The translations under genes and the position numbers were made by a program. From Acutalibacteraceae bacterium (lineage in GTDB: Bacteria > Bacillota > Clostridia > Oscillospirales > Acutalibacteraceae), in the NCBI GenBank assembly GCA_045605425.1, contig JAZUQA010000021.1, forward strand, positions 1 through 32,000: a stretch of 32,000 bases of DNA, in the 5' to 3' direction. The notes beneath the pieces are model-generated. The model searched no databases. It was not told where the DNA came from and worked only from the letters and a program-made list of their open reading frames with translations. Positions 6,642 through 17,387 of the stretch are shown one piece after another; the first letter of the stretch is position 1; every line of letters starts with the position of its first letter.

Positions 6642-7904
6642 TTACCTGCTGTTTGCGGTTTCTATCATTCCGAAGTAGAAGTCCTCAAAGGTTGTGGGGT
6701 AGTCCTTCGTACCGCAGAAATCGAAGTGGTCTGTGCCGTACATTGTGTCGAGGTAGTACCATCTGCCGGGTTCAATTTTTTCGTTTGCCGCTATTGCTTC
6801 CTCGTAATCACGGGCTGTTGCGGCATCGCAAAGCGGATAGAGTGCAGAGGCAAGTGGCACAATTCCGTCGTTTACTGCCCAGTCGCCCTCGATTTTTACG
6901 CCGTCAATTGTCATACCCGTTGTAAGGGCGAGCATTGCACCAGAGATATAGAAAATCGGGTTGAGTGAGCTTATGGGATACTGCAGACCAAAAAGGCCTT
7001 CCTTGGTTGCAGCGGTTGAATATGAATAGTAATACGTGTTGGGAGCGAGCTTGATTTTTTCATTGAGCTCTCTTGCGCCACGAAGTGTCATATCATAGCC
7101 GCAGTTGTCGTTATATTTGCAGAAGTTATATATACCCTTGAAATCCGGCAGAGCTCTGAATTCGTCCTGCGCAGGGGTAAGCCCGAACTGACTTAACTGG
7201 AAGGAGAAAACGAGGAAATTGTTACCAAATATACCGCCAAGAGCATTAAGTGCCGTTGCAAGCAGGAGCATAGTCACCTGAGGGTCAACAAGGTAATTTG
7301 CAACCTGTGAACCGTTGTGGGGACTTGAAAGAGTGATACAAGCGTGAACGCTGTCGTGACCACCCTTGAAAAGCTCGCTTGTTTCTTCACCCGTTGCGGC
7401 AAGCTCCTCCTCACAGCCGTAAGCCATAAGGGAGGTAAAAAGCCTTACCGTTTCGCCGCCGAAGGAATGACCGACAAGATTAATTTTATCCTTCATATTC
7501 CACGGCTCATCCATAACCGCCTTACCTTCATAGCTGAAGCCGTAACGGTCATGTCCGTGGGCTTTGGAATGAGCCTCACCGTAATCGACAACCGTACCCG
7601 TAAGCTGTGCATAAAGCTCACACGCTCTGTCCCAAGCACTGCTCAAAGGACCGACAGCAGGCGCATAAGCCTCAATTCCGTTTTCGTTGAGTATTTTTAT
7701 AAGGTCCGTATCATTCAGACCGAGACCGCCGCCCCAATAAGGCGAAAGCGAATAAAATTTGTTATCCGGTGCCCAACCGCCCATACCGTGAACAAATATG
7801 TACGGATAATCCGTTTTACCGTCATTTGCGGCATAAGAGCTTATTGCAACCGACGAGAAAAGCAAGGTAAACACAAGAAGCAAAGCGGTAATCTTTTTTA
7901 TCAT
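6642..7904 (-). CDS. Secreted triacylglycerol-lipase-like alpha/beta hydrolase
   Basis: Signal peptide MIKKITALLLVFTLLFSSVAISSYA. Motifs YPYIFVHGMGGWA and GHSFGG. It shares the block SSAWDRACELYAQLTGT.VDYGEAHSK.HGHDRYG with 1144..2781. GGAG lies 7 nt upstream of the ATG at 7904. Confidence 0.85.
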   Translation of the reverse strand: MIKKITALLLVFTLLFSSVAISSYAANDGKTDYPYIFVHGMGGWAPDNKFYSLSPYWGGGLGLNDTDLIKILNENGIEAYAPAVGPLSSAWDRACELYAQLTGTVVDYGEAHSKAHGHDRYGFSYEGKAVMDEPWNMKDKINLVGHSFGGETVRLFTSLMAYGCEEELAATGEETSELFKGGHDSVHACITLSSPHNGSQVANYLVDPQVTMLLLATALNALGGIFGNNFLVFSFQLSQFGLTPAQDEFRALPDFKGIYNFCKYNDNCGYDMTLRGARELNEKIKLAPNTYYYSYSTAATKEGLFGLQYPISSLNPIFYISGAMLALTTGMTIDGVKIEGDWAVNDGIVPLASALYPLCDAATARDYEEAIAANEKIEPGRWYYLDTMYGTDHFDFCGTKDYPTTFEDFYFGMIETANSR

Positions 7905-8072: not shown

Positions 8073-9878
8073 ATGAAAATCAAGGTTTCAAATTATATAT
8101 CACAGTTTCTTGTTGACAACGGCATTGACACGCTGTTTACGGTTACGGGCGGCGGTGCAATGCACCTCAACGATGCTTTCGGACATCAGGAGGGCTTGCG
8201 CTGTGTTTATAACCACCATGAGCAGGCGTGTGCAATAGCGGCAGAAGCGTATGCGAGAATTCACAATAAAATTGCAGGTGTCTGCGTTACAACAGGTCCG
8301 GGCGGCACAAACGCCATTACGGGTGTTGTGGGCGGCTGGCTTGATTCTATTCCGATGCTGATTATTTCGGGTCAGGTGCGTTATGACACAACGGCAAGAG
8401 GCAGCGGACTTAACCTGCGTGCAATGGGTGACCAGGAATTTGACATTACAAAGGCCGTTGACTGTATGACGAAGTACAGCGAAATGGTTGTTGACCCGTG
8501 GCGGATAAGATACTGCCTTGAAAAGGCGCTCAAAATTGCCCAAAGCGGCAGACCGGGTCCGTGCTGGCTGGATATTCCGATGAACGTTCAGGGCGCATAC
8601 ATTGAAACAGACGAGCTTATCAGCTATGACGAAGAGGAAGAAGAGCTCCCCTGCCCCGTAAGCGATGAAACTGCTGACAGGGTGCTCGACCTTATTGCAG
8701 AGAGCAAAAGACCCGTTTTTAATGTAGGCAACGGCGTGAGAATTGCGAGTGCACACGAGGTATTTTACCGTGTTGCAGGTAAGCTGAACATTCCCGTTGT
8801 TACGGGCTGGAACAGCATTGACTGCATTGAGGACGAGCACGAGCTTTATGTCGGCAGGGCAGGCATTATGGGCGACAGACCGGGTAACTTTGCCGTGCAG
8901 AACAGCGACTTACTGCTGAGTGTCGGCAGCAGGCTGAGCATAAGACAGGTCGGCTACAACTACCAGACATGGGCAAGGGCTGCGAAGAAAATTGTTGTTG
9001 ATATCGACAGCGAGGAACTGAAAAAGCCGAACGTCAATGCAGATTTTCCGATTCGGGCCGATGCAAAGGATTTCCTTGAAGCTCTTGAAAGAAGAATTGA
9101 CGAAAGAAACTTCAGCTTCCCGAAATCCGACTGGCACGACAGATGCACCGACTGGAAAATAAAATACCCCGTTGTGCTTCCCAAGCACTATGAGTGCGAA
9201 GAAGCTAACGTATACGCTTTCATAAAAGAGCTGAGCAGTAAGCTGAACGAAGGCGACGTTACGGTGGTCGGCAACGGCTCTGCCTGCGTTGTGGGCAGCC
9301 ACGCTTACGTTATAAAGCAAAAGCAGAGGTTTATAATAAATTCCGCCATTGCTTCAATGGGCTATGACTTGCCTGCGGCTATCGGTGTTGCCGAGGCCGA
9401 AAAGGATAAGGATATTATTCTTATCACGGGTGACGGAAGCATACAGATGAATTTGCAGGAGATGCAGACAATACTGCAAAACCGTCTGCCGATTAAGACT
9501 TTTATGATAAACAACGGCGGCTACCACTCGATCAGGCAGTCGCAGAAGAATTTCTTCGGTGAGCCTTTGGTCGGTGTCGGCCCCGAAAGCGGTGACCTTA
9601 GCTTCCCCGATATGTCAAAGCTCGTGCCTGCATACGGTATGAAGTATTACCGCATTGAGAAAAACAAAGAGCTTTCAAAGGTTATTGATGCGGTGCTGAA
9701 AGAGGAGGGTCCCGTTTTCTGCGAGGTTATTGTAAGCCCCGAGCAGAAATTTGAGCCCAAGGCTTCGTCAAAACGTCTTGAGGACGGCACCATTGTTTCC
9801 GCTCCGCTTGAAGACCTTGCACCGTTTCTGAGCAGAGAAGAACTTAAAGAAAATATGATAATTGAACTTGTTGATTAA
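8073..9878 (+). CDS. Thiamine-diphosphate-dependent enzyme (acetolactate synthase / benzoylformate decarboxylase superfamily)
   Basis: N-terminal PYR domain TVTGGGAMHLNDAF and TTGPGGTNAITGV. ThDP-binding motif GDGSIQMNLQEMQT...NNGGY. The start is uncertain: GTG 8064, ATG 8067 or ATG 8073. I chose 8073 because GGTGA sits 5 nt upstream. Confidence 0.85.
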   Translation: MKIKVSNYISQFLVDNGIDTLFTVTGGGAMHLNDAFGHQEGLRCVYNHHEQACAIAAEAYARIHNKIAGVCVTTGPGGTNAITGVVGGWLDSIPMLIISGQVRYDTTARGSGLNLRAMGDQEFDITKAVDCMTKYSEMVVDPWRIRYCLEKALKIAQSGRPGPCWLDIPMNVQGAYIETDELISYDEEEEELPCPVSDETADRVLDLIAESKRPVFNVGNGVRIASAHEVFYRVAGKLNIPVVTGWNSIDCIEDEHELYVGRAGIMGDRPGNFAVQNSDLLLSVGSRLSIRQVGYNYQTWARAAKKIVVDIDSEELKKPNVNADFPIRADAKDFLEALERRIDERNFSFPKSDWHDRCTDWKIKYPVVLPKHYECEEANVYAFIKELSSKLNEGDVTVVGNGSACVVGSHAYVIKQKQRFIINSAIASMGYDLPAAIGVAEAEKDKDIILITGDGSIQMNLQEMQTILQNRLPIKTFMINNGGYHSIRQSQKNFFGEPLVGVGPESGDLSFPDMSKLVPAYGMKYYRIEKNKELSKVIDAVLKEEGPVFCEVIVSPEQKFEPKASSKRLEDGTIVSAPLEDLAPFLSREELKENMIIELVD

Positions 9879-9897
9879 CAAAATCATAGGAGAAATT

Positions 9898-10314
9898 ATG
9901 AAAATAAATATCAAAGATATAATGTATTACGGAAGATATTATACTGATATTACATCAGAACCGTACTGGTGGTTTGGTAAAGATGATTATCAGATATATT
10001 CTTCGGAAAACTTAATTAAAGAGTATTCATACAAGGATACGGATGATATATTACAATCCGGGTATTTTATACCTATCTTTCAAACAGATATTATCGAACT
10101 GGAAAAAAGATTTTTAGCAGAATATAATTCCAGACCACTCCAAGATAAAACAGAAAAACTCGTTACCCAAGCAAACGGTAATTTTGATTTAGCCTTCAAA
10201 ACATTAATTGAGGTTGAAGAAGGAATGTCAGAAAACTGGTATGATTTTGAAAGAGAAAATTTGTATAACGACGCTGTGAATTGGTGTCAAAAGCATAATA
10301 TAAAATATCAATAA
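9898..10314 (+). CDS. AT-rich orphan hypothetical protein (138 aa)
   Basis: AGGAG (9888-9892) lies 5 nt before the ATG at 9898. Product: MKINIKDIMYYGRYYTDITSEPYWWFGKDDYQIY... I recognise no family. G+C is only 12/60 and 19/60 in lines 9901 and 9961, against 34/60 in line 9541 of the neighbouring gene. Confidence 0.6.
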   Translation: MKINIKDIMYYGRYYTDITSEPYWWFGKDDYQIYSSENLIKEYSYKDTDDILQSGYFIPIFQTDIIELEKRFLAEYNSRPLQDKTEKLVTQANGNFDLAFKTLIEVEEGMSENWYDFERENLYNDAVNWCQKHNIKYQ

Positions 10315-10324
10315 CAAACACTTG

Positions 10325-10363
10325 AGCACCTGAACGTTGTATTCGTTCAGGTGCTTATTTTTG
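10325..10363 (+). terminator. Rho-independent terminator
   Basis: A perfect 12-bp stem, agcacctgaacg (10325-10336) / cgttcaggtgct (10344-10355), with a 7-nt loop, followed by tatttttg. Confidence 0.7.
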
Positions 10364-10487
10364 TGTCTATTCATGAACAAATTATTAACATTTTGAATTT
10401 TTGCCGATTTTGTCAACCTTTTTGTGTAAAAAAACGGGCTGTACCCCTTTTGAGTGGGAGGAGTTTTTGAAAAGTGTTAAAGAAACT

Positions 10488-10514
10488 TTGAGTAAAGTAA
10501 GTTAACTTTACAAT
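10488..10514 (+). promoter_or_regulatory. Candidate promoter for the phage head module
   Basis: TTGAGT (10488-10493), then TACAAT (10509-10514). The spacer is only 15 nt, so this is a weak call. Confidence 0.3.
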
Positions 10515-10573
10515 TTCGTGTAATTTCCGCCGCACGGAAAAAACTTCTCTACTAAAGCAAGGAAGGTGAAAAA

Positions 10574-11062
10574 ATCGCAAAGAAACCCTTAAGCAAAAGA
10601 GAAAAGCTGTTTTGCTTAAACTACGCTTATCTTCGCAACGGAAGTGAAGCGGCTGCAAGGTCGGGCTATACGCTAAACCCGAAATCTGCCTCGGTAAAGC
10701 TGCTTTCACGCAAGGAAATAGCCGAGGAAATTGCCGCTGTTTCTAACCGCTTCAAGCCTATGCAGACAGAGGCAGCAACAGGCTACAAACGGCTTGCCTT
10801 CGGGTCTGCAGCCGATGCGCTGAGCCTGCTTTTCCGTGAGGAAGCACCGACAAAAGAGGAGCTTGCCGAAATGGATTTGTTCAACGTTTCCGAAATCAAA
10901 CGCCCCAAGGGTGGCGGACTGGAAATCAAGTTTTTCGACAGGCTTAAACCGCTTGAAAAGCTTGCTGAAATGAGTGAAGGTGAGGCTGCGGCCGCTCTGC
11001 CGTTTTACGAGGCACTTAACAGCTCAGCAAAGGCACTTTACGGGAGAGATGCGCTTGAGTAA
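10574..11062 (+). CDS. Terminase small subunit (Terminase_2-like), start codon non-canonical or lost
   Basis: The frame is open from the stop at 10553-10555. It encodes ...KKPLSKREKLFCLNYAYLRNGSEAAARSGYTLNPKSASVKLLSRKEIAEEI..., a typical TerS N-terminal HTH region. The first ATG is at 10760. The only plausible upstream start is ATC 10574, 5 nt after GGAAGGTG. Confidence 0.6.
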   Translation: MAKKPLSKREKLFCLNYAYLRNGSEAAARSGYTLNPKSASVKLLSRKEIAEEIAAVSNRFKPMQTEAATGYKRLAFGSAADALSLLFREEAPTKEELAEMDLFNVSEIKRPKGGGLEIKFFDRLKPLEKLAEMSEGEAAAALPFYEALNSSAKALYGRDALE

Positions 11063-12341
11063 AGCAAACAAACTTTACAGCACCTTCAAGCCTTTCTCCG
11101 AAAAACAATTGACCGCACTCACCTGGTGGTGTCCCTCTTCGCCCTACAAAATGCGTGATGCAATCATCTGTGACGGTGCGGTAAGGTCGGGCAAGACGCT
11201 TTGTATGTCAATTTCGTTTATCGCCTGGGCTTTTTCCGCTTTTGACGGCACGGCATTTGCAATATGCGGCAAAACGGTAACCTCGCTGAGAAGAAATGTT
11301 ATTACTCCCCTGCTGCCCGTACTCAGAGAGCTTGGCTTTGAGTGCACCGAAAAGGTATCCAAAAATCTTATTGAGATTTCCTTTGACGGCAGAGTAAACA
11401 GTTTTTATCTTTTCGGCGGTAAGGATGAATCCTCCGCATCACTTATTCAGGGTATGACCCTTGGCGGCGTTTTGCTGGACGAGGTTGCGCTTATGCCACG
11501 CTCGTTTGTTGAGCAGGCACTTGCCCGCTGCTCGGTTGAGGGCTCAAAATTCTGGTTCAACTGCAACCCCGACAATCCGCTTCACTGGTTTCACGAGGAG
11601 TGGATAAAGAAAAGCGAAGAAAAAAACTGCCTTTACCTGCACTTTTTAATGCAGGACAACCCCTCGCTTACAAAACAGATTATGGAGCGCTACCGCAGCC
11701 TTTACAGCGGTTCGTTCTACGAGCGTTTTGTTGAGGGCAAGTGGGTGGCTGTGCAGGGGCTTGTTTACCCGTTTTTCTGTGAAAGCAGAAATGTCTGCGA
11801 AGTGCCCGGCGGCGAATTTGACCGTTACTGCATTTCGTGCGACTACGGCACGGTAAACCCTTGTTCCTTCGGGCTGTGGGGAAAGCAGGACGGAATATGG
11901 TACAGGCTGGATGAATATTACCACGATTCACGCTTGCTCGGGGAACAGAAAACGGACGAGGAGCACTACAGCGCACTTGAAACCTTAGCAGGTGAAAGAA
12001 AAATTGACTCCGTTACGGTTGACCCGTCTGCGGCAAGCTTTATTGAGTGCATACGCAGGCACGGGCATTTCCGTGTTGTTCCGGCAAGAAACGATGTGCT
12101 TGACGGAATAAGAAAGGTATCCGAAGCGATAAAGGGCGGCAAAATCAAAATCTGTTCACCCTGCCGTGACATCATACGTGAATTTTCGCTGTACCGCTGG
12201 GAGGACAACTGCACAAAGGACACCCCGAAAAAGACTAACGACCACGCAATGGACGACCTGCGCTACTTTGTGACAACGCTGATGGAAACGGGCAGCAGCG
12301 AATTTTTTGCCATTGCACAGGAAAGGAATGAAAGGCTATAA
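11049..12341 (+). CDS. Terminase large subunit
   Basis: Walker A CDGAVRSGKT and Walker B GGVLLDEVAL. The C-terminal nuclease region contains CISCDYG and NDHAMDDLRY. I preferred the ATG at 11049, which overlaps the TerS stop at 11060-11062, over the ATG at 10974. Confidence 0.85.
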   Translation: MRLSKANKLYSTFKPFSEKQLTALTWWCPSSPYKMRDAIICDGAVRSGKTLCMSISFIAWAFSAFDGTAFAICGKTVTSLRRNVITPLLPVLRELGFECTEKVSKNLIEISFDGRVNSFYLFGGKDESSASLIQGMTLGGVLLDEVALMPRSFVEQALARCSVEGSKFWFNCNPDNPLHWFHEEWIKKSEEKNCLYLHFLMQDNPSLTKQIMERYRSLYSGSFYERFVEGKWVAVQGLVYPFFCESRNVCEVPGGEFDRYCISCDYGTVNPCSFGLWGKQDGIWYRLDEYYHDSRLLGEQKTDEEHYSALETLAGERKIDSVTVDPSAASFIECIRRHGHFRVVPARNDVLDGIRKVSEAIKGGKIKICSPCRDIIREFSLYRWEDNCTKDTPKKTNDHAMDDLRYFVTTLMETGSSEFFAIAQERNERL

Positions 12342-12382
12342 GAAAAAGTAAAAAGAACACCGCCGAAGCCGAGGTCTGCTCG

Positions 12383-13465
12383 GTGCAGACGGGACACGCA
12401 CAAAATCCGTTTGCGTTTCTGGAAAGCTATTCGGCACTCGGCAGGCAGCAGCTTCGGCTGTATTCCGCACTCAGAGATGCCGTACCGATTATTGATGCGG
12501 CGATTATGAAGCTGGTAAGGCTTACGGGCGGATTCAGCATCCGATGCACAGATTCAGCCGCCCAGGATACGCTTGACCGTTTTTTCAGCAGCGTAAATGT
12601 CAACGGCAACAGCCTTGGACTCGAAAGCTTTGTATCAAGCTATTTTGAACAGCTTCTCACCTACGGCACGGCTATAGGTGAAATTGTAACGGATAACACG
12701 GGGCTGCCCGTTGCACTTTTCAACGCACCGCTTGAAAATATTGAATTAAAGCGAAACGCAAACGGCATTGACATAGACATTTTCACTATCCGCTCCGGTA
12801 TGGCTGAAAAAGTTAAATACCCCGAGCTGATTGTTATGTCAACGCTCAACCCCAGACCCGGTGAGCTTTGCGGTAATTCACTTTTAAGCGGTCTGCCCTT
12901 TGTTGCACAGACGCTTATGCAGATTTTCAGAACAACGGGCACAAACTGGGAACGCCTGGGCAACACACGCTTTGCCGTAACCTACAAGCCGACAAACGAT
13001 GCACTTGACAAGGCTTACGCCAAGGAAAGGGCAATGCAGGTTGCAAAGGAATGGAGCAACGCCATGAGCAGTGAAAGCGTAAGAGATTTCGTTGCCGTGG
13101 GTGATATTCAGATTAAGGCTATAGGCTCGGAAACACAGATTCCCGACAGCGAAATACCCGTAAGACAGCTGCTTGAACAGATTGTTTCAAAGACGGGCTT
13201 ACCGCCGTTTCTGTTGGGGCTAAGCTGGTCGAGCACGGAGAGAATGTCCTCACAGCAGGCAGACGCCCTGACAAGCGAGCTTGAAGCCTACCGCAGAATA
13301 CTCACTCCTGCAATAACAAGGCTTGCAGACACCTGCCTGAGGCTTTTCGGGCTTGCAGGAAGCGCCCAAATTATCTGGGACGACATAATGCTGCAGGATA
13401 TGGTTGAGCTTTCCCGTGCCGAGCTTTACTCCGCACAGGCACTTAAATTAACCAAGGAGGACTAA
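12383..13465 (+). CDS. Phage portal protein
   Basis: It sits immediately after TerL and is 360 aa long, with a GTG start 9 nt after GAGG. The acidic/helical C-terminus (SSQQADALTSELEAYRRIL) is portal-like. The family call rests on synteny and general resemblance. Confidence 0.7.
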   Translation: MQTGHAQNPFAFLESYSALGRQQLRLYSALRDAVPIIDAAIMKLVRLTGGFSIRCTDSAAQDTLDRFFSSVNVNGNSLGLESFVSSYFEQLLTYGTAIGEIVTDNTGLPVALFNAPLENIELKRNANGIDIDIFTIRSGMAEKVKYPELIVMSTLNPRPGELCGNSLLSGLPFVAQTLMQIFRTTGTNWERLGNTRFAVTYKPTNDALDKAYAKERAMQVAKEWSNAMSSESVRDFVAVGDIQIKAIGSETQIPDSEIPVRQLLEQIVSKTGLPPFLLGLSWSSTERMSSQQADALTSELEAYRRILTPAITRLADTCLRLFGLAGSAQIIWDDIMLQDMVELSRAELYSAQALKLTKED

Positions 13466-14445
13466 TGGAGAAATTACAGAAAAATGCACCGTCGGGAGTT
13501 GAATGCTCTTTTATCCCGACGGATAAAGACCTTGAGCTTATCAACCGCTACACGGTAAAGGCGCTTGAGGCAGACGAGGTTTTCTGCTTTAATCTCACGC
13601 TTTGTGACAACGAAATCGACAGGGATTTAGAGCGTTTCAGCGTTGAGGCACTTACCGCACTTGCACCGATGTTTGAGGGCAAAACAGGTATTGCAGACCA
13701 CAGTATGAAGACTCAAAACCAGCACTCAAGAATTTTTAAGACCTGGATTGAAGAAAGCGAAATCCGCAAGACTTCAACGGGCGAGAACTACACCGCTCTA
13801 AAGGCGAGGGCATATATCCCCATAACGCCCAAAAGCGAGGAGCTTATTGGGCAGATAAAGTCGGGGATTAAAAAGGAAACGAGCATAAGCTGTGCCGTGA
13901 GCAGTCACATCTGCTCGGTGTGCTCGGCAGAGATTAAAAAAGGAGGCTGTAAGCACCGCAAGGGCGAGCTTTACGACGGCAGGGTGTGCCACACCGTGCT
14001 TAATAAGCCGACAGATGCTTACGAATTCAGCTTTGTTGCCGTGCCTGCCCAACCCGAGGCAGGTGTGACAAAGAGTTTCACCGTGCCCGAGGGTATGGAG
14101 CTTGACAGAATTGGAAAAGCCGCAACAGGCTGCGACGCAATTACGCTGAGCATTGAGGCTTTTTCTCAGCTTACCCAAAAAATTCACAACCTGCAGGAGC
14201 TTTCAAAGGATGCCGAAAAATACAGAAAAGCACTTGAAGCAAGAGTTGCAAGGCTTGGCGCAATGGCTGTTCCCGAGCTTAATTCAGACGAGCTTGAAGG
14301 TGTTTGCAAGCAATTATCCACAGACAGCCTTACAGCACTTGAAAAGGCGTTTTCGGCAAATGCGGCAAAGCGTTTTCCGCTCGCACCACAGCTTGGCACA
14401 TTCACAAACACAAACAAAACCGACAATAAGGAATTCAAAATTTAA
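13465..14445 (+). CDS. Prohead serine protease (HK97/S78-like) with a C-terminal coiled-coil scaffold-like extension
   Basis: Protease-like blocks GKTGIADHS (His), KKETSISCAV (Ser) and AYEFSFVAVPAQPEAG. The C-terminal 120 aa are heptad-rich (LTQKIHNLQELSKDAEKYRKALEARVARL). The start overlaps the portal stop (TAATG). Confidence 0.65.
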   Translation: MEKLQKNAPSGVECSFIPTDKDLELINRYTVKALEADEVFCFNLTLCDNEIDRDLERFSVEALTALAPMFEGKTGIADHSMKTQNQHSRIFKTWIEESEIRKTSTGENYTALKARAYIPITPKSEELIGQIKSGIKKETSISCAVSSHICSVCSAEIKKGGCKHRKGELYDGRVCHTVLNKPTDAYEFSFVAVPAQPEAGVTKSFTVPEGMELDRIGKAATGCDAITLSIEAFSQLTQKIHNLQELSKDAEKYRKALEARVARLGAMAVPELNSDELEGVCKQLSTDSLTALEKAFSANAAKRFPLAPQLGTFTNTNKTDNKEFKI

Positions 14446-14457
14446 GGAGGATAAAAT

Positions 14458-14802
14458 ATGTCAGTTTCATTCAAAGGTATCAACGAACAGGTAGTCACAT
14501 TCAAAACAGAAGAGGAGCTTGCAGCAGGCACGCTTGTAACCGTATCGGATAACGGCACGGTAAGCCCCTGTGCGGCAAACGGCAAGATTGTGGGCGTTGT
14601 TGTTTCAAGCAGAGAAAGCATTGCCGCCGTACAGATTTCGGGCTTTGTTACCCTGCCCTATTCGGGCTCTGCACCTGCACTCGGTGTTACGGCAATCGCC
14701 GCCGCAAGCGACACAAAAATCAAGGCGGACGCAACAAACGGCAAGCTCGTCACCGTAGTGGAAACAGACACAGCGGCACTCACAGCAGGCATTCTGCTTT
14801 AA
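14458..14802 (+). CDS. Head decoration / DUF2190-like small capsid protein
   Basis: 114 aa, rich in Gly, Val and Ala in a beta-type pattern (GTLVTVSDNGTV...GKIVGVVVS...VQISGFVTL). It lies between the protease and the MCP. AAGGAGG precedes the ATG. Confidence 0.5.
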   Translation: MSVSFKGINEQVVTFKTEEELAAGTLVTVSDNGTVSPCAANGKIVGVVVSSRESIAAVQISGFVTLPYSGSAPALGVTAIAAASDTKIKADATNGKLVTVVETDTAALTAGILL

Positions 14803-14824
14803 TGAAAGGAAGGAGTAAATAACT

Positions 14825-15829
14825 ATGGCAAATTTTGACAACATCAGACTTGAAAAGGGACTTTACTGCGGCGGCTCATTCACCTCTGCTCTTGAGAGCA
14901 TTGACCCGTCCGAAAACTACAAGGACAGTGCTCTGGAGGGACTTGACGCCTATCAGCGACAGCTCAAGCGTTTTGACATCAAGGTAAGCGGCAGCGGCAG
15001 CGACGTTGTTGAAAAGTTTTTCAAGACAAGCGACAGCGCAACACTTTTCCCCGAATATGTTGCAAGAGCAGTAAGACAGGGCATGGAGGAGGCGAACGTA
15101 CTTCCCAAGCTTGTTGCAAGCGTTACCAACATTGATTCGCTTGACTACCGCTCAATCACAAGTATTCCCACAGACGACGACAAGGCACTCAAGGAGGTTG
15201 CCGAGGGCAGCACAATTCCGCAGACGGTTGTCAAGACCCGTGAAAACCTTGTAAAGCTCAAGAAGAGAGGCAGAATGCTTGTTGCTTCTTACGAGGCAAT
15301 CCGTTTCCAACGCCTTGACCTTTTCACCGTAACACTCCGCCAGATTGGCGCATACATCGCAAAGGCACAGCTTGCCGATGCAATTGACGTTATCGTAAAC
15401 GGTGACGGCAACGGCAATGCTGCCGCCGCAACAAATGCACTTTCCTCGGGCACTCTCGGCTATGCCGACATCGTAAACCTCTGGAAGGACCTTGACCCGT
15501 ATGAGATGAACGTGCTTATTGCAAACAATGCGGATGCGGTAAATATGCTCAACCTTCCCGAATTCAAGGATTCTGCGGCAGGCCTGAGCTTCCACGCAAC
15601 GGGCAAAATGATTACGCCTATCGGTGCAGAGCTCATCCGTTCTTCTGCTGTTGAAAGCGGCAAAATCATCGGCCTTGATAAAACCTGCGCACTTGAAATG
15701 GTAAAGGCAGGCGAGGTTATGACCGAATACGACAAGCTCATTGACAGACAGCTTGAACGTGCCGCAATTACCTCAATTGCAGGCTTTGCAAAAATCTTCA
15801 CAGACGCATCCCGTGTGCTTGAAGTTTAA
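14825..15829 (+). CDS. Major capsid protein (HK97 fold)
   Basis: 334 aa at the canonical position with a strong SD (GGAAGGAG). It has an E-loop-like segment TVVKTRENLVKLKKRGRMLVASYEAIRFQ and a C-terminal IDRQLERAAITSIAGFA. Confidence 0.8.
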   Translation: MANFDNIRLEKGLYCGGSFTSALESIDPSENYKDSALEGLDAYQRQLKRFDIKVSGSGSDVVEKFFKTSDSATLFPEYVARAVRQGMEEANVLPKLVASVTNIDSLDYRSITSIPTDDDKALKEVAEGSTIPQTVVKTRENLVKLKKRGRMLVASYEAIRFQRLDLFTVTLRQIGAYIAKAQLADAIDVIVNGDGNGNAAAATNALSSGTLGYADIVNLWKDLDPYEMNVLIANNADAVNMLNLPEFKDSAAGLSFHATGKMITPIGAELIRSSAVESGKIIGLDKTCALEMVKAGEVMTEYDKLIDRQLERAAITSIAGFAKIFTDASRVLEV

Positions 15830-15848
15830 TTTACGGGGGTAAGGCGCT

Positions 15849-16217
15849 TTGATCGGTAACCATACTGTACTTAACGGATTAAGGCAGCTTATGACCCTCG
15901 ACGAGAAAGAGGCAGAGAACGCTCTGCCTCTTTGCTCACTCTGCCTTAACGAAATAAAAAAACGCCTGCGTGAGGGCGCAGACGAAAACGACAGCCGCAT
16001 TGCCTCATGTGCGGCGGCACTCGCCTTTTACCGCATAGCAATCAGAAACGCCGTTGATTCGCAGGGCACTACCAGCTTCAAGGCAGGCGATGTTACGGTG
16101 AGCCGTTCTCCTGCGGCGGCGGTTGAACTGGCGGTTGCGGTAAGGGACGAGACCTTTGCCGCAGCGGCAGACCTGATTGAAGACCAAAGCTTTGTTTTCA
16201 GGCAGGTGGGTGTATGA
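15849..16217 (+). CDS. Head-tail connector (gp6-like DNA-packaging/adaptor protein)
   Basis: 122 aa, helical, directly after the MCP. The TTG start follows GGGGGTAAGG. An alternative ATG exists at 15891. Confidence 0.5.
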   Translation: MIGNHTVLNGLRQLMTLDEKEAENALPLCSLCLNEIKKRLREGADENDSRIASCAAALAFYRIAIRNAVDSQGTTSFKAGDVTVSRSPAAAVELAVAVRDETFAAAADLIEDQSFVFRQVGV

Positions 16218-16543
16218 AAATTAAAAAGCTGCTTGACACCTACGGCAGAACGGTTGAGCTGAACTCAGCCGAATCCGCAAAAAAATACAAGGCGTTTATT
16301 CAGCCGTTGAGATATAAAAACAAAATGTACCTTGACGGCGTTTACACGCAAATCGGTTTCAACAGCCAGGGACACTACCTTTACATAGGTCCTCCCGACC
16401 CTGACCTGACACTTGCTGATGACGGGGCTTTCCTGTTTGCGGACGAAACAAAATACCAGATTGACCGTGCGGAAAGGGTTTACAACGGCGACAGGGTATT
16501 TTATATCTGGGCAATTATAAGAACGATAGTGGAGGTTGAATGA
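16214..16543 (+). CDS. Head closure / head-tail joining protein
   Basis: 109 aa with an ATGA overlap onto the preceding gene. The pattern resembles Phage_H_T_join-type proteins (KAFIQPLRY...YQIDRAERVYNGDRVFYIWAIIR). Confidence 0.5.
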   Translation: MKIKKLLDTYGRTVELNSAESAKKYKAFIQPLRYKNKMYLDGVYTQIGFNSQGHYLYIGPPDPDLTLADDGAFLFADETKYQIDRAERVYNGDRVFYIWAIIRTIVEVE

Positions 16544-16544
16544 T

Positions 16545-17387
16545 ATGTCAAATTCAATAAGCGCAATGCCCAAGGACATTGTAAAATGGCTCAATGAACA
16601 GACGGAGGTTTTCGGCAAAATAAAATTCCTCACGGAGTTTCCGCCCGTACCCAAGGCGACACCGCTTAAAAATCCGATTATATCGGTTGGACTTGACAGC
16701 GTTAAGATTTCCGACTTTTTCGTTGAGAACAGCGAGGGTGAGCTCGTGCCCGATGAATACTGCCGTATGGCGGATATAAGGCTGCGTTTTTCAATTCACG
16801 TGCCCTATTCAATGGGCGGCACAGCCTGCCACGATGCGTTCACGAGAACAGTTGACTGCCTTTCCTTCAAGAGTGACCTAAACCTTGTTCAGTCGGGCTG
16901 TGAGGCTATAGTTGCCGACAGGGAAACGGACGCCTTTGTTATGAAAAGCTGGGCAGATGTTCAGGCGCAGTTCTGCCCTGCGGAATCAAGCGAAATACAG
17001 TACGAGGCTTTTCTGCCCAAAACGTTTTTCTGTGCCTCGCATATGAACGACACCGACCTGCACGTATCGAAGGAAGAAAAGGCGAAATGGAATTCGTCCA
17101 TTACAATCGGCTCGTATTTCGGCACGGGTGAAGCCAGCCGAAGCATTAACCTCGGCTTTAAGCCCACCGCTGTTATTGTAATCCCCTCACTCGTGCCGCT
17201 TTTCTATACGGCAACGGGAGCCTCCTACTGTATGAGCGGCATTGCGGCGAAGAGCTATTCGAGCGCAGGTGTTTATATAAACGACAGCGGCTTTACGATA
17301 AAACAGAGCACATCCGAAAACTACGGCGATACCTTTGTTTTGCTCAATAAGCTCAACATAGATTATTGCTATATCGCACTTAAATAA
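16545..17387 (+). CDS. Neck / tail-completion-like N-terminal domain fused to a C-terminal domain of unknown function; last gene of the module
   Basis: GGAGG (16531-16535) lies 9 nt before the ATG at 16545. The N-terminal IVKWLNEQTEVFGKIKFLTEFPPVPKATPLKNPIISVGLDSV loosely resembles the conserved start of tail-completion/neck proteins. The C-terminal SYFGTGEASRSINLGFKPTAVIVIP... is unassigned. Confidence 0.4.
   Translation: MSNSISAMPKDIVKWLNEQTEVFGKIKFLTEFPPVPKATPLKNPIISVGLDSVKISDFFVENSEGELVPDEYCRMADIRLRFSIHVPYSMGGTACHDAFTRTVDCLSFKSDLNLVQSGCEAIVADRETDAFVMKSWADVQAQFCPAESSEIQYEAFLPKTFFCASHMNDTDLHVSKEEKAKWNSSITIGSYFGTGEASRSINLGFKPTAVIVIPSLVPLFYTATGASYCMSGIAAKSYSSAGVYINDSGFTIKQSTSENYGDTFVLLNKLNIDYCYIALK

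Follow-up and report, generated by a model that had tools for sequence, protein, structure and literature searches.

A phage-derived head-and-neck operon kept by Acutalibacteraceae: a probable reduced viriform resembling gene transfer agents

Packaging of host DNA by gene transfer agents (GTAs) and GTA-like particles has newly been recognised as widespread in gut Oscillospirales, but the responsible genes are known only for Faecalibacterium (PMC12946183; 10.64898/2026.07.08.737213). The agent of Faecalibacterium prausnitzii, FpGTA, forms particles of ~40 nm without a visible tail, in which host DNA of 8.4-8.9 kb is enclosed (Borodovich et al., Nat Commun 2026, PMC12946183). GTA-like packaging of 4-6 kb has been reported in other Oscillospirales, the gene cluster not having been identified (PMC12946183). 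Acutalibacteraceae DNA made up ~10% of one mouse virus-like particle (VLP) 'transductome', and a candidate GTA of Coprocola consists of a 14 kb core and a 3.6 kb lysis cluster (10.64898/2026.07.08.737213). In this study, we analyse a block of nine phage-derived genes in an Acutalibacteraceae bacterium (GenBank assembly GCA_045605425.1, contig JAZUQA010000021.1, positions 1 to 32,000 of the forward strand; this 32 kb stretch is referred to as the window). The block encodes head, packaging and neck proteins. It points to another family of small clusters of phage origin, which is unrelated to the first and very widespread.

Classical GTAs and viriforms (RcGTA, BaGTA, VSH-1, Dd1, VTA) and PBSX of Bacillus subtilis are clusters, small compared with a phage, without integration and replication genes, which are inherited vertically and kept by purifying selection. 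All of them are tailed. GTA particles enclose essentially random host DNA, in fragments too short to hold the full gene set that makes them, and deliver it to recipient cells. Phage-inducible chromosomal islands that form capsids (cf-PICIs) encode TerS, TerL, portal, protease, major capsid protein (MCP), adaptor and connector, carry no tail or lysis genes and release tail-less capsids (He et al. 2025, 10.1101/2025.02.11.637232). They possess an integrase or recombinase, AlpA regulation, replication functions and an HNH endonuclease (10.1101/2025.02.11.637232). cf-PICIs are mobile, occur as identical copies across species and diversify their adaptors and connectors to suit the tails of their helpers.

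Listing and translation of the open reading frames (ORFs) of the window reveal nine co-oriented, uninterrupted and tightly packed genes (10574-17387, + strand). Their order is TerS, TerL, portal, a protease/scaffold-like gene 4, minor capsid gene 5, HK97-type MCP, g7, g8 and the 280-aa fusion protein g9. TerS and TerL overlap by 14 nt, while portal and gene 4, as well as g7 and g8, overlap at their stop and start codons. Hidden Markov models (HMMs) of Pfam, PHROG and NCBIfam identified five of the nine products (TerS, TerL, portal, gene 5 and MCP). Searches of all large ORFs of the 32 kb against Pfam and PHROGs detected no integrase, repressor, replication, tail or lysis gene and neither an HNH endonuclease nor an AlpA-type regulator. 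The remaining large ORFs are ordinary cellular genes, including those for a thiamine pyrophosphate (TPP) enzyme, DHDPS-family, DivIVA-like, TrmB and HAD proteins, thiamine pyrophosphokinase, an extracytoplasmic function (ECF) sigma factor and glycosidases, or have no phage match. Within the window no tRNA genes or att-like repeats flank the block, and its GC content is not distinct from that of its surroundings. A preliminary description of this DNA had reported a tail-less head block of nine intact same-strand genes, free of integrase, repressor, replication, tail and lysis genes. This observation is confirmed, with names and coordinates corrected.

The same description had proposed to compare synteny at the locus and to estimate the ratio of nonsynonymous to synonymous substitutions (dN/dS) for the nine genes. 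In 27 further species-level genomes, the block is likewise followed directly by the DHDPS-divIVA-trmB-thiamine pyrophosphokinase(-HAD) genes. Across ~80 loci the nine genes remain intact and near-constant in length; the exception is gene 5, which one subclade and the type C loci described below do not have. Median pairwise dN/dS values (NG86) range from 0.07 to 0.29 for the nine genes as compared to 0.05-0.20 for the host flanks; they are limited to pairs with 0.05 < dS < 1.5, as dS is near saturation for many pairs, and the closest pairs are considered in addition. To the closest relatives dS is equal for block and flanks (0.2-0.7), and divergence of the block tracks that of the host genes (dS 0.2-1). 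Distances of head and host proteins are correlated (Mantel r = 0.72, a value reached in none of 2000 permutations). The head proteins evolve more slowly than the flanking proteins, at 0.72 times their rate, and conservation of the MCP exceeds that of the housekeeping genes next to it. The block is thus vertically inherited at a fixed chromosomal site under purifying selection. Selection together with co-divergence rules out a recent remnant under relaxed selection and argues against a horizontally mobile satellite. The preliminary description had considered that an ordinary, full prophage might occupy this site in close relatives, which is not the case: relatives with tail genes are distant, occupy other sites and have structural clusters of only 12-14 kb.

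The last gene of the block, g9, probably starts at ATG 16545. Its AlphaFold (AF2) model, built on 46 homologues, has a mean predicted local distance difference test (pLDDT) score of 83.7 and consists of two domains joined by a disordered linker. The N-terminal domain (16545-16985, +) is predicted to adopt the tail terminator fold (gpU-like). Its Foldseek matches in the PDB include the E217 gateway protein (8fvh_M, 6e-6) and the collars of pyocin R2 (6u5f_A) and diffocin, and further lambda gpU (3fzb), T5 p142 and the SaPI1 neck (9mu3_D). The linker (16986-17033, +; pLDDT <50 for residues 151-166) marks the junction of an ancestral deletion. The C-terminal domain (17034-17387, +), which reaches a pLDDT of 91.6 when modelled by itself, is a predicted beta-sandwich that stems from the short fibre gene of the baseplate module. 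Foldseek found no significant match for it in the PDB; its matches in BFVD are domains inside phage proteins of 500-1455 aa, among which are a DUF7483 protein and proteins annotated as tail fibres, at moderate support (E ~2e-4, TM score ~0.5). The preliminary description had named this product a neck-like fusion protein, which agrees well with a tail terminator fold linked to a fibre-type beta-sandwich.

Both halves of g9 exist as separate genes in relatives (loci are designated by L numbers). The N-terminal domain aligns to a terminator gene of 138-175 aa located directly after g8 in type A relatives. The C-terminal domain is 35-38% identical to residues ~38-156 of a fibre ORF in L046 and L077-79, its counterpart being the last ~118 residues of the 156-177 aa ORF that ends the baseplate module. 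Terminator and fibre genes lie ~4.9 kb apart in L046, L065 and L077-79. Between them are genes for tube-like and LysM/DNA_circ_N proteins, a baseplate hub (phrog_177), a gp25-like sheath initiator, Baseplate_J (8e-44) and a Mu gp48-like protein. All fusion-type g9 proteins, those of the most divergent clades included, have one junction in common, and hence one ancestral in-frame deletion made the fusion. Since the junction is shared by all fusion-type relatives, this deletion is ancient. In the lineage of the window, a single ancient deletion of ~4.9 kb took out all that lay between terminator and fibre and joined the terminator in frame to the C-terminal beta-sandwich of the fibre. The idea of a very recent, clean deletion remnant, raised in the preliminary description, is thereby refuted: a deletion did occur, but long ago, and was followed by purifying selection, under which both domains stand today (dN/dS 0.10). 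Eight Cys and His residues of g9 are invariant (C76, C98, H99, C122, C147, C166, H169 and H176 in 283-aa numbering).

The block belongs to a large family. MCP relatives are present in at least 86 GTDB species-representative genomes, nearly all of them metagenome-assembled genomes (MAGs) of Acutalibacteraceae/Oscillospirales, and the family comprises 485 stretches in IMG/VR and more than 8000 MCP relatives in a protein collection. A search of the library of papers used here found no description of this family nor of the terminator-fibre fusion, and to our knowledge the family, its type A and A+ members included, is undescribed. Architectures were read from 80 GTDB species-representative loci and from 80 + 80 IMG/VR loci. 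Four of them, A+, A, B and C, are built on a common TerS-to-g8 core. Type A+ (L154-type loci) has a terminator, a sheath (Pfam Phage_sheath_1/_1C), a tube, a 265-aa possible tape measure, baseplate and fibre. These fullest versions, with sheath, tube, Mu/P2-type baseplate and short fibre, amount to 12-14 kb in total. Type A has tube and baseplate, without sheath and without a gene of tape-measure size. Type B is the type of the window with its fused g9; it accounts for the majority of GTDB loci and occurs in at least four chromosomal contexts. In type C the terminator only is left, followed by host genes, and this form arose at least twice. A neighbour-joining (NJ) tree of TerL, portal and MCP places type A as basal and paraphyletic and type B in one large clade plus L044/L060; DHDPS-linked loci are monophyletic. 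Type A/A+ relatives (L046, L077-79, L154 and 12-14 kb IMG/VR UViGs) share with the window the TerS-to-g8 order (MCP 58-70% identical), the terminator, the C-terminal fibre domain and a leader motif upstream of terS. Type A relatives keep the tube, LysM protein, hub, gp25-like, Baseplate_J and gp48-like proteins and a separate fibre, all of which the window lacks, and type A+ relatives further keep sheath and possible tape measure. The family can be regarded as an undescribed, widespread group of GTA-like clusters with the window as its tail-less end-state.

Some type B loci carry additional genes. In L084 (6620-11055; IMG/VR UViG_3300029434_000346) and likewise in L085, L089 and L092-93, the same strand continues after g9 with genes for a Sigma70_r4+HTH_3 protein of 210 aa and a CBM_5_12 protein, two small ORFs and a gene for an endolysin-like protein of 285 aa with CW_7 repeats. 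These genes might form a regulator and lysis cassette linked to the block, which the window lacks.

Among the described systems, FpGTA is the most similar in outline. Both are chromosomal structural operons of gut Oscillospirales (TerS, TerL, portal, scaffold/protease, MCP and small conserved proteins), lack integrase and replication genes and are near-ubiquitous in their host clade. The proteins differ. The annotation assigns the MCP of FpGTA to the N4-gp56 family, with a Prp-like protease alongside, whereas the window encodes an HK97/Phage_capsid_4 MCP and a TerL of the PBSX family. The window MCP matches HK97-type models only: no N4-gp56 match was obtained in NCBIfam, which names that family, and there is no Prp-like gene. 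Moreover, FpGTA has a second operon with baseplate, fibre, receptor-binding protein, holin and endolysin, whereas the window lineage lost the baseplate and fused the fibre domain. Annotation in the FpGTA proteomics table and NCBIfam set the two apart, so that the block is not a member of the FpGTA family and the likeness appears to be one by analogy. With PBSX the block shares the TerL family, and the fuller relatives resemble miniature PBSX-type myovirus particles. A contractile tail and a lysis cassette, as found in PBSX, are absent from the window and present only in distant relatives. Unlike the classical GTAs and PBSX, the window block has no tail in cis. It further differs from RcGTA, whose TerS has no DNA-binding domain, by a TerS with full Terminase_2 domain.

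Like GTAs and viriforms in general, the block is a chromosomal structural cluster without integration and replication genes, inherited vertically and under purifying selection. We consider it rather probable, reading from sequence, that it is a host-kept, phage-derived head-and-neck operon, namely a reduced GTA-like viriform of Acutalibacteraceae. This corresponds to the domesticated capsid producer that the preliminary description had listed among its options, and the fixed locus in 27 species-level genomes, intact genes, low dN/dS and co-divergence favour it over the others. A dedicated promoter and a structured leader 5' of terS would turn the operon on in some cells. TerS would be made sparingly from an AUC/AUA start codon, with translation of TerL coupled to that of TerS. 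MCP, portal, protease-scaffold and minor capsid protein would assemble a small prohead, which matures and is filled with host DNA by TerS and the PBSX-type TerL through a headful mechanism. The portal would be closed by g7 as adaptor and g8 as stopper. A hexameric ring of g9 might then cap the neck and display six fibre-type domains that bind the cell surface; in the model, this domain would be the sole candidate adsorption device encoded in the window. The resulting particle would have no tail. Its release would need lysis functions encoded elsewhere, and the DNA would enter by the recipient's own uptake machinery, unless the particles serve another role in DNA export. The specific version of this proposal, a self-contained tail-less DNA particle in which a terminator ring with fibre-derived receptor-binding domains replaces the tail, the neck docks on the cell and DNA passes to the competence machinery, is possible but we regard it as doubtful.

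Several points weigh against the interpretation as a reduced viriform. We know of no precedent for a tail terminator that assembles on a stopper without a tube, nor of a mechanism by which a neck-only particle would move DNA through the Gram-positive wall. For the whole family, transcription, particles, packaged DNA and transfer are predictions from the genes. The view covers 32 kb of the genome, and unlinked tail, lysis and regulator genes could lie elsewhere. Since the Terminase_2 domain of TerS is complete, N-terminal region included, the DNA might be packaged from a specific pac site instead of at random. The roles of g7 and g8 are assigned by position, and that of the protease by motifs. 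The direction of the tail-reduction series is based on parsimony, on normal phage architecture and on a midpoint-rooted NJ tree. Finally, nearly all comparative sequences are MAG contigs, with the linkage of block and host genes read within single contigs.

Of the other explanations, a tailed GTA encoded at several loci survives best, although it is unlikely. Tail, fibre, holin and endolysin genes would lie elsewhere in the genome and their products would assemble onto these heads. RcGTA is such a multi-locus agent with accessory loci. The two FpGTA operons are 125 kb apart (PMC12946183), and the lysis cluster of the Coprocola candidate is likewise separate (10.64898/2026.07.08.737213). Particle release would require lysis genes somewhere, and the regulator and CW_7 cassette linked to g9 in L084 indicates that accessory genes move around. 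Yet the fibre domain was fused to the terminator and not relocated, and selection acts on both domains. The baseplate modules of this lineage in IMG/VR are all contiguous with head genes: every related Baseplate_J locus with at least 6 kb of upstream sequence joins the head genes of this family, and a stand-alone baseplate operon of the FpGTA-II kind was not found in IMG/VR, where head-less matches are truncated contigs. In addition, a neck capped by its own terminator would be an unusual docking surface for a finished tail.

Co-option for purposes beyond gene transfer is improbable. The particles might export or dispose of DNA (extracellular DNA in biofilms, altruistic lysis), act as decoy against phage packaging or form a protein/DNA nanocompartment. 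Purifying selection proves usefulness only and not purpose, and the window encodes no apparatus for delivery. DNA is also packaged by PBSX-type particles, yet their role is killing and not donation (PMC12946183). What speaks for DNA-filled, sealed particles is that TerS, TerL, portal and the complete neck have been kept, and the fibre-type domain retained on the neck points to contact with a target cell. An encapsulin nanocompartment, defined by an HK97-fold shell protein with cargo-loading peptides and without portal and terminase, was considered and rejected, as the block has intact genes for portal, TerS and TerL on which selection acts.

Still less probable is a capsid-forming, tail-stealing satellite whose DNA-filled capsids use the tails of a co-resident or co-infecting helper phage and whose integrase was lost or never needed. 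The preliminary description had pointed to one half of a cf-PICI or a tail-hijacking satellite, and the genes of the block do resemble those with which cf-PICIs package DNA: HMMs identify TerS, TerL, portal and MCP, protease, adaptor and connector are putative, and tail and lysis genes are absent. TerS keeps its DNA-binding region, and the palindromes that bracket terS (see below) could constitute a pac site for self-packaging. The block nevertheless fails to qualify as a cf-PICI, lacking mobility as well as, within the 32 kb, the integrase, AlpA-type regulator, replication module and HNH endonuclease of these islands. Its fixed site and co-divergence across 27 species stand in contrast to near-identical cf-PICI copies in different species. 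Both g7 and g8 are conserved, whereas cf-PICI adaptors and connectors evolve fast to match tails, and the block encodes its own tail terminator in addition to the packaging set, a protein that normal assembly adds to the tail and not to the head.

A decaying prophage remnant that is intact by chance is hardly credible, for even though most phage functions are missing and TerS has no canonical start codon, the nine genes are intact in ~80 species-level genomes at housekeeping-like dN/dS, the non-canonical terS start is itself conserved throughout the clade and the MCP exceeds its housekeeping neighbours in conservation.

Fixed locus, host co-divergence and dN/dS similar to that of housekeeping genes make the evidence for domestication of this block unusually clean. 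The family has kept its head and lost its tail by degrees and repeatedly, which raises the question of what selects for a particle of head and neck only, and how or whether it delivers DNA. If the particle is self-contained and tail-less, it would represent the end-point of stepwise, selected tail loss among the domesticated phage particles that gut Clostridia carry. Part of the 'GTA-like' packaged DNA of 4-6 kb in gut viromes, so far unexplained, may then come from such particles. The terminator-fibre fusion, the conserved leader/promoter element and the non-AUG start of terS provide testable handles of the family. Five contigs from human faecal samples filed as 'Bacteriophage sp.' carry the block. 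One of them, MT835508.1 (L001, 46.7 kb, 'UNVERIFIED: Bacteriophage sp.'), is a fragment of bacterial chromosome with SecY, RnfC, NrdD, ABC transporters and MCRA. It carries the terminator-only form of the block in an arrangement nearly identical to Eubacterium sp. CAG:180 (L072). The presence of such a contig among phages may reflect host DNA in a VLP preparation or, equally well, contamination or mis-filing.

Concerning the individual genes, TerS (10574-11062, +) is a small terminase with an N-terminal helix-turn-helix (HTH) region (Pfam Terminase_2, 7e-9, above cutoff; dN/dS 0.17). TerL (11049-12341, +) belongs to the PBSX family of large terminases (NCBIfam TIGR01547, 3e-53, 181.6 bits at a cutoff of 105; Pfam Terminase_6N/6C; phrog_2, 1e-46) and contains the Walker A motif GAVRSGKT; its dN/dS is 0.07. 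The portal (12383-13465, +) matches phrog_30703 over its full length (7e-118; dN/dS 0.10) and Pfam Phage_portal at 2e-6, which is under the gathering cutoff. The MCP (14825-15829, +) is a member of the HK97 fold family (Pfam Phage_capsid_4, 3e-17; phrog_3922, 4e-96; dN/dS 0.07), also matches the NCBIfam HK97 MCP model just above cutoff and is 84-98% identical across the syntenic clade. The HMM searches thus uphold the first assignments of TerS, TerL with its Walker A motif, portal and HK97-type MCP, and correct some of the others.

Gene 4 (13465-14445, +) encodes a putative prohead protease followed by a scaffold-like coiled coil (phrog_16951 of unknown function, 1e-91; dN/dS 0.12). A protease-like N-terminal part with a Cys-rich insert precedes the coiled coil at residues ~205-326. 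It had been described as S78-like protease with coiled coil. The second part of this description stands, as a PDB profile search with residues 210-300 yields coiled-coil proteins only; the first does not, as gene 4 has no Pfam match and Peptidase_S78 was not detected. H79, S140 and the motif YEWSFVAVPAQ are invariant, and we presume from these motifs a resemblance to S78-type prohead proteases. Gene 4 also has a CxxC...CxH...C cluster (C150, C153, C162, H164 and C175). The Cys and His residues of gene 4 and g9 may bind metal or form disulfides, either of which would be uncommon in prohead proteases and terminators.

Gene 5 (14458-14802, +) is a minor capsid or decoration-like gene by its match to phrog_4588 ('virion structural protein', 2e-21). 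Its sole Pfam match is weak (XM1_gp53_minor_capsid, 7e-4, below cutoff), and HMMs give no DUF2190-like assignment of the kind proposed before. It has the highest dN/dS of the nine genes (0.29) and is cleanly missing, with the other eight genes intact, in one DHDPS-linked subclade (L017, L019, L021-23, L025 and L076) and in type C loci. Gene 5 is dispensable in some lineages. The products of g7 (15849-16217, +; TTG start, 122 aa; dN/dS 0.22) and g8 (16214-16543, +; 109 aa; dN/dS 0.17) are a putative head-tail adaptor and a putative head-closure protein or stopper by position and size. Neither has a family match in Pfam, PHROG, NCBIfam or PDB sequences, and their earlier naming as connector and head-closure proteins is accordingly not backed by homology. 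Position and length of g7 (120-122 aa) are conserved and its KAGD motif is invariant; g8 is conserved in length (~110 aa) and in the motif QPLRYKNKMYL. PDB sequence-profile searches with g7, g8, gene 4 and MCP gave no informative relatives.

The start of terS is unusual. The block had been taken to begin with TerS at 10488, but an in-frame TAA at 10553-10555 excludes this start, and there is no ATG, GTG or TTG for TerS behind it, as had been noticed in the preliminary description. An ATC at 10574 is located 7 nt past a strong Shine-Dalgarno (SD) sequence, AAGGAAGG (10559-10566). An in-frame AT[A/C] codon is kept across the whole DHDPS-linked clade (ATC in the window, ATA in most relatives; L002-L027 and L076) and aligns with the ATG or TTG starts of TerS in other clades. 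The probable start of TerS is therefore the non-canonical ATC at 10574, and its conservation suggests a weak AUC/AUA initiation codon on terS. Frameshifting at an A6 run was rejected as explanation, because the A-run is not conserved (L008, L010, L017) whereas the in-frame AT[A/C] is.

Upstream of TerS, a non-coding element of the form TTGTCAACC..GTAAAAAAA..GT-N..CTTTTGAGTGGGAGGAG (10410-10463, +) is conserved. Its parts are a small palindrome, a run of A and the motif GTKYNNSCTWWKRGTGARAGG, and an IUPAC scoring scan found it in 46 non-identical loci of several clades (e.g. L050, L052, L057, L061). The core motif is at 10447-10463, with GAGGAG (10458-10463) as 5' arm of a leader stem. In general the 3' part of the motif, TGARRGG, forms the 5' arm, and the 3' arm, CCYYTCR, immediately precedes the SD sequence; in other clades CCYYTCR lies 10-40 nt past the motif. 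The arms show compensatory changes between clades (GAGAGG/CCTCTC, GAAAGG/CCTTTC, GAAGGGGA/TCCCTT), and RNAfold predicts the stem at the same nucleotide in most loci. The subclade of the window alone has an insertion of ~80 nt inside the stem (10464-10549, +), which ends with the 3' arm CTTCTC (10544-10549) pairing with 10458-10463. No sigma-70-like promoter is predicted before terS, and neither window nor terS leader matches an Rfam family. The conserved element and the compensatory stem indicate dedicated regulation, and the element may be a dedicated promoter plus 5' leader hairpin. The hairpin and A-run upstream of the motif were also considered as terminator of the preceding gene and rejected, as the T-run is on the wrong side in most loci; in some type A loci the hairpin does resemble a terminator.

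A search for direct repeats and motifs shows exactly two copies of the palindrome GTAAAG-N8-CTTTAC in the 32 kb. One copy is inside the leader insertion (10492-10511, +). The second (11059-11078, +) spans the TerS stop codon (11060-62), 10 nt after the ATG of TerL. Both are found at conserved positions, with differing loops, in seven genomes (the window, L002, L004-6, L010 and L018). The pair may serve as operator or pac boxes on either side of terS, or form a hairpin through which translation of TerL depends on that of TerS.

At the borders of the block, a strong terminator (10323-10357) closes the gene upstream, and none is predicted between g9 and the DHDPS gene. The host-type promoter that had been placed 20 nt past the block is a 9/12 consensus match, and such matches are no commoner in this region than in shuffled sequence. 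In the closest relative, an insertion of ~4 kb lies exactly between g9 and the DHDPS gene (L002:12765-16786), and this junction therefore tolerates insertions. The inserted genes were rejected as tail genes, as they encode, among others, an M23/SH3 peptidase, PadR and DUF6120 on mixed strands. Upstream, a 150-aa ORF (9862-10314) of low GC content (~37% vs 46-50% around) overlaps the TPP-enzyme gene at the end of the latter, and the terminator at 10323-10357 comes after it. It has no Pfam or PHROG match, and among the relatives only L005 has a homologue (94% identity). The window further contains two paralogous genes with a lipase-like C-terminal domain, Lip_C (1144-2865, - and 6642-7904, -), one of them with an N-terminal Xre-type HTH. 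In many loci with otherwise different flanks (L032, L034, L036, L047-L061), a homologue of this HTH-Lip_C protein (40-53% identity) is encoded at most a few kb away from the head block, which could be a coincidence arising from a large paralogous family or a real association.

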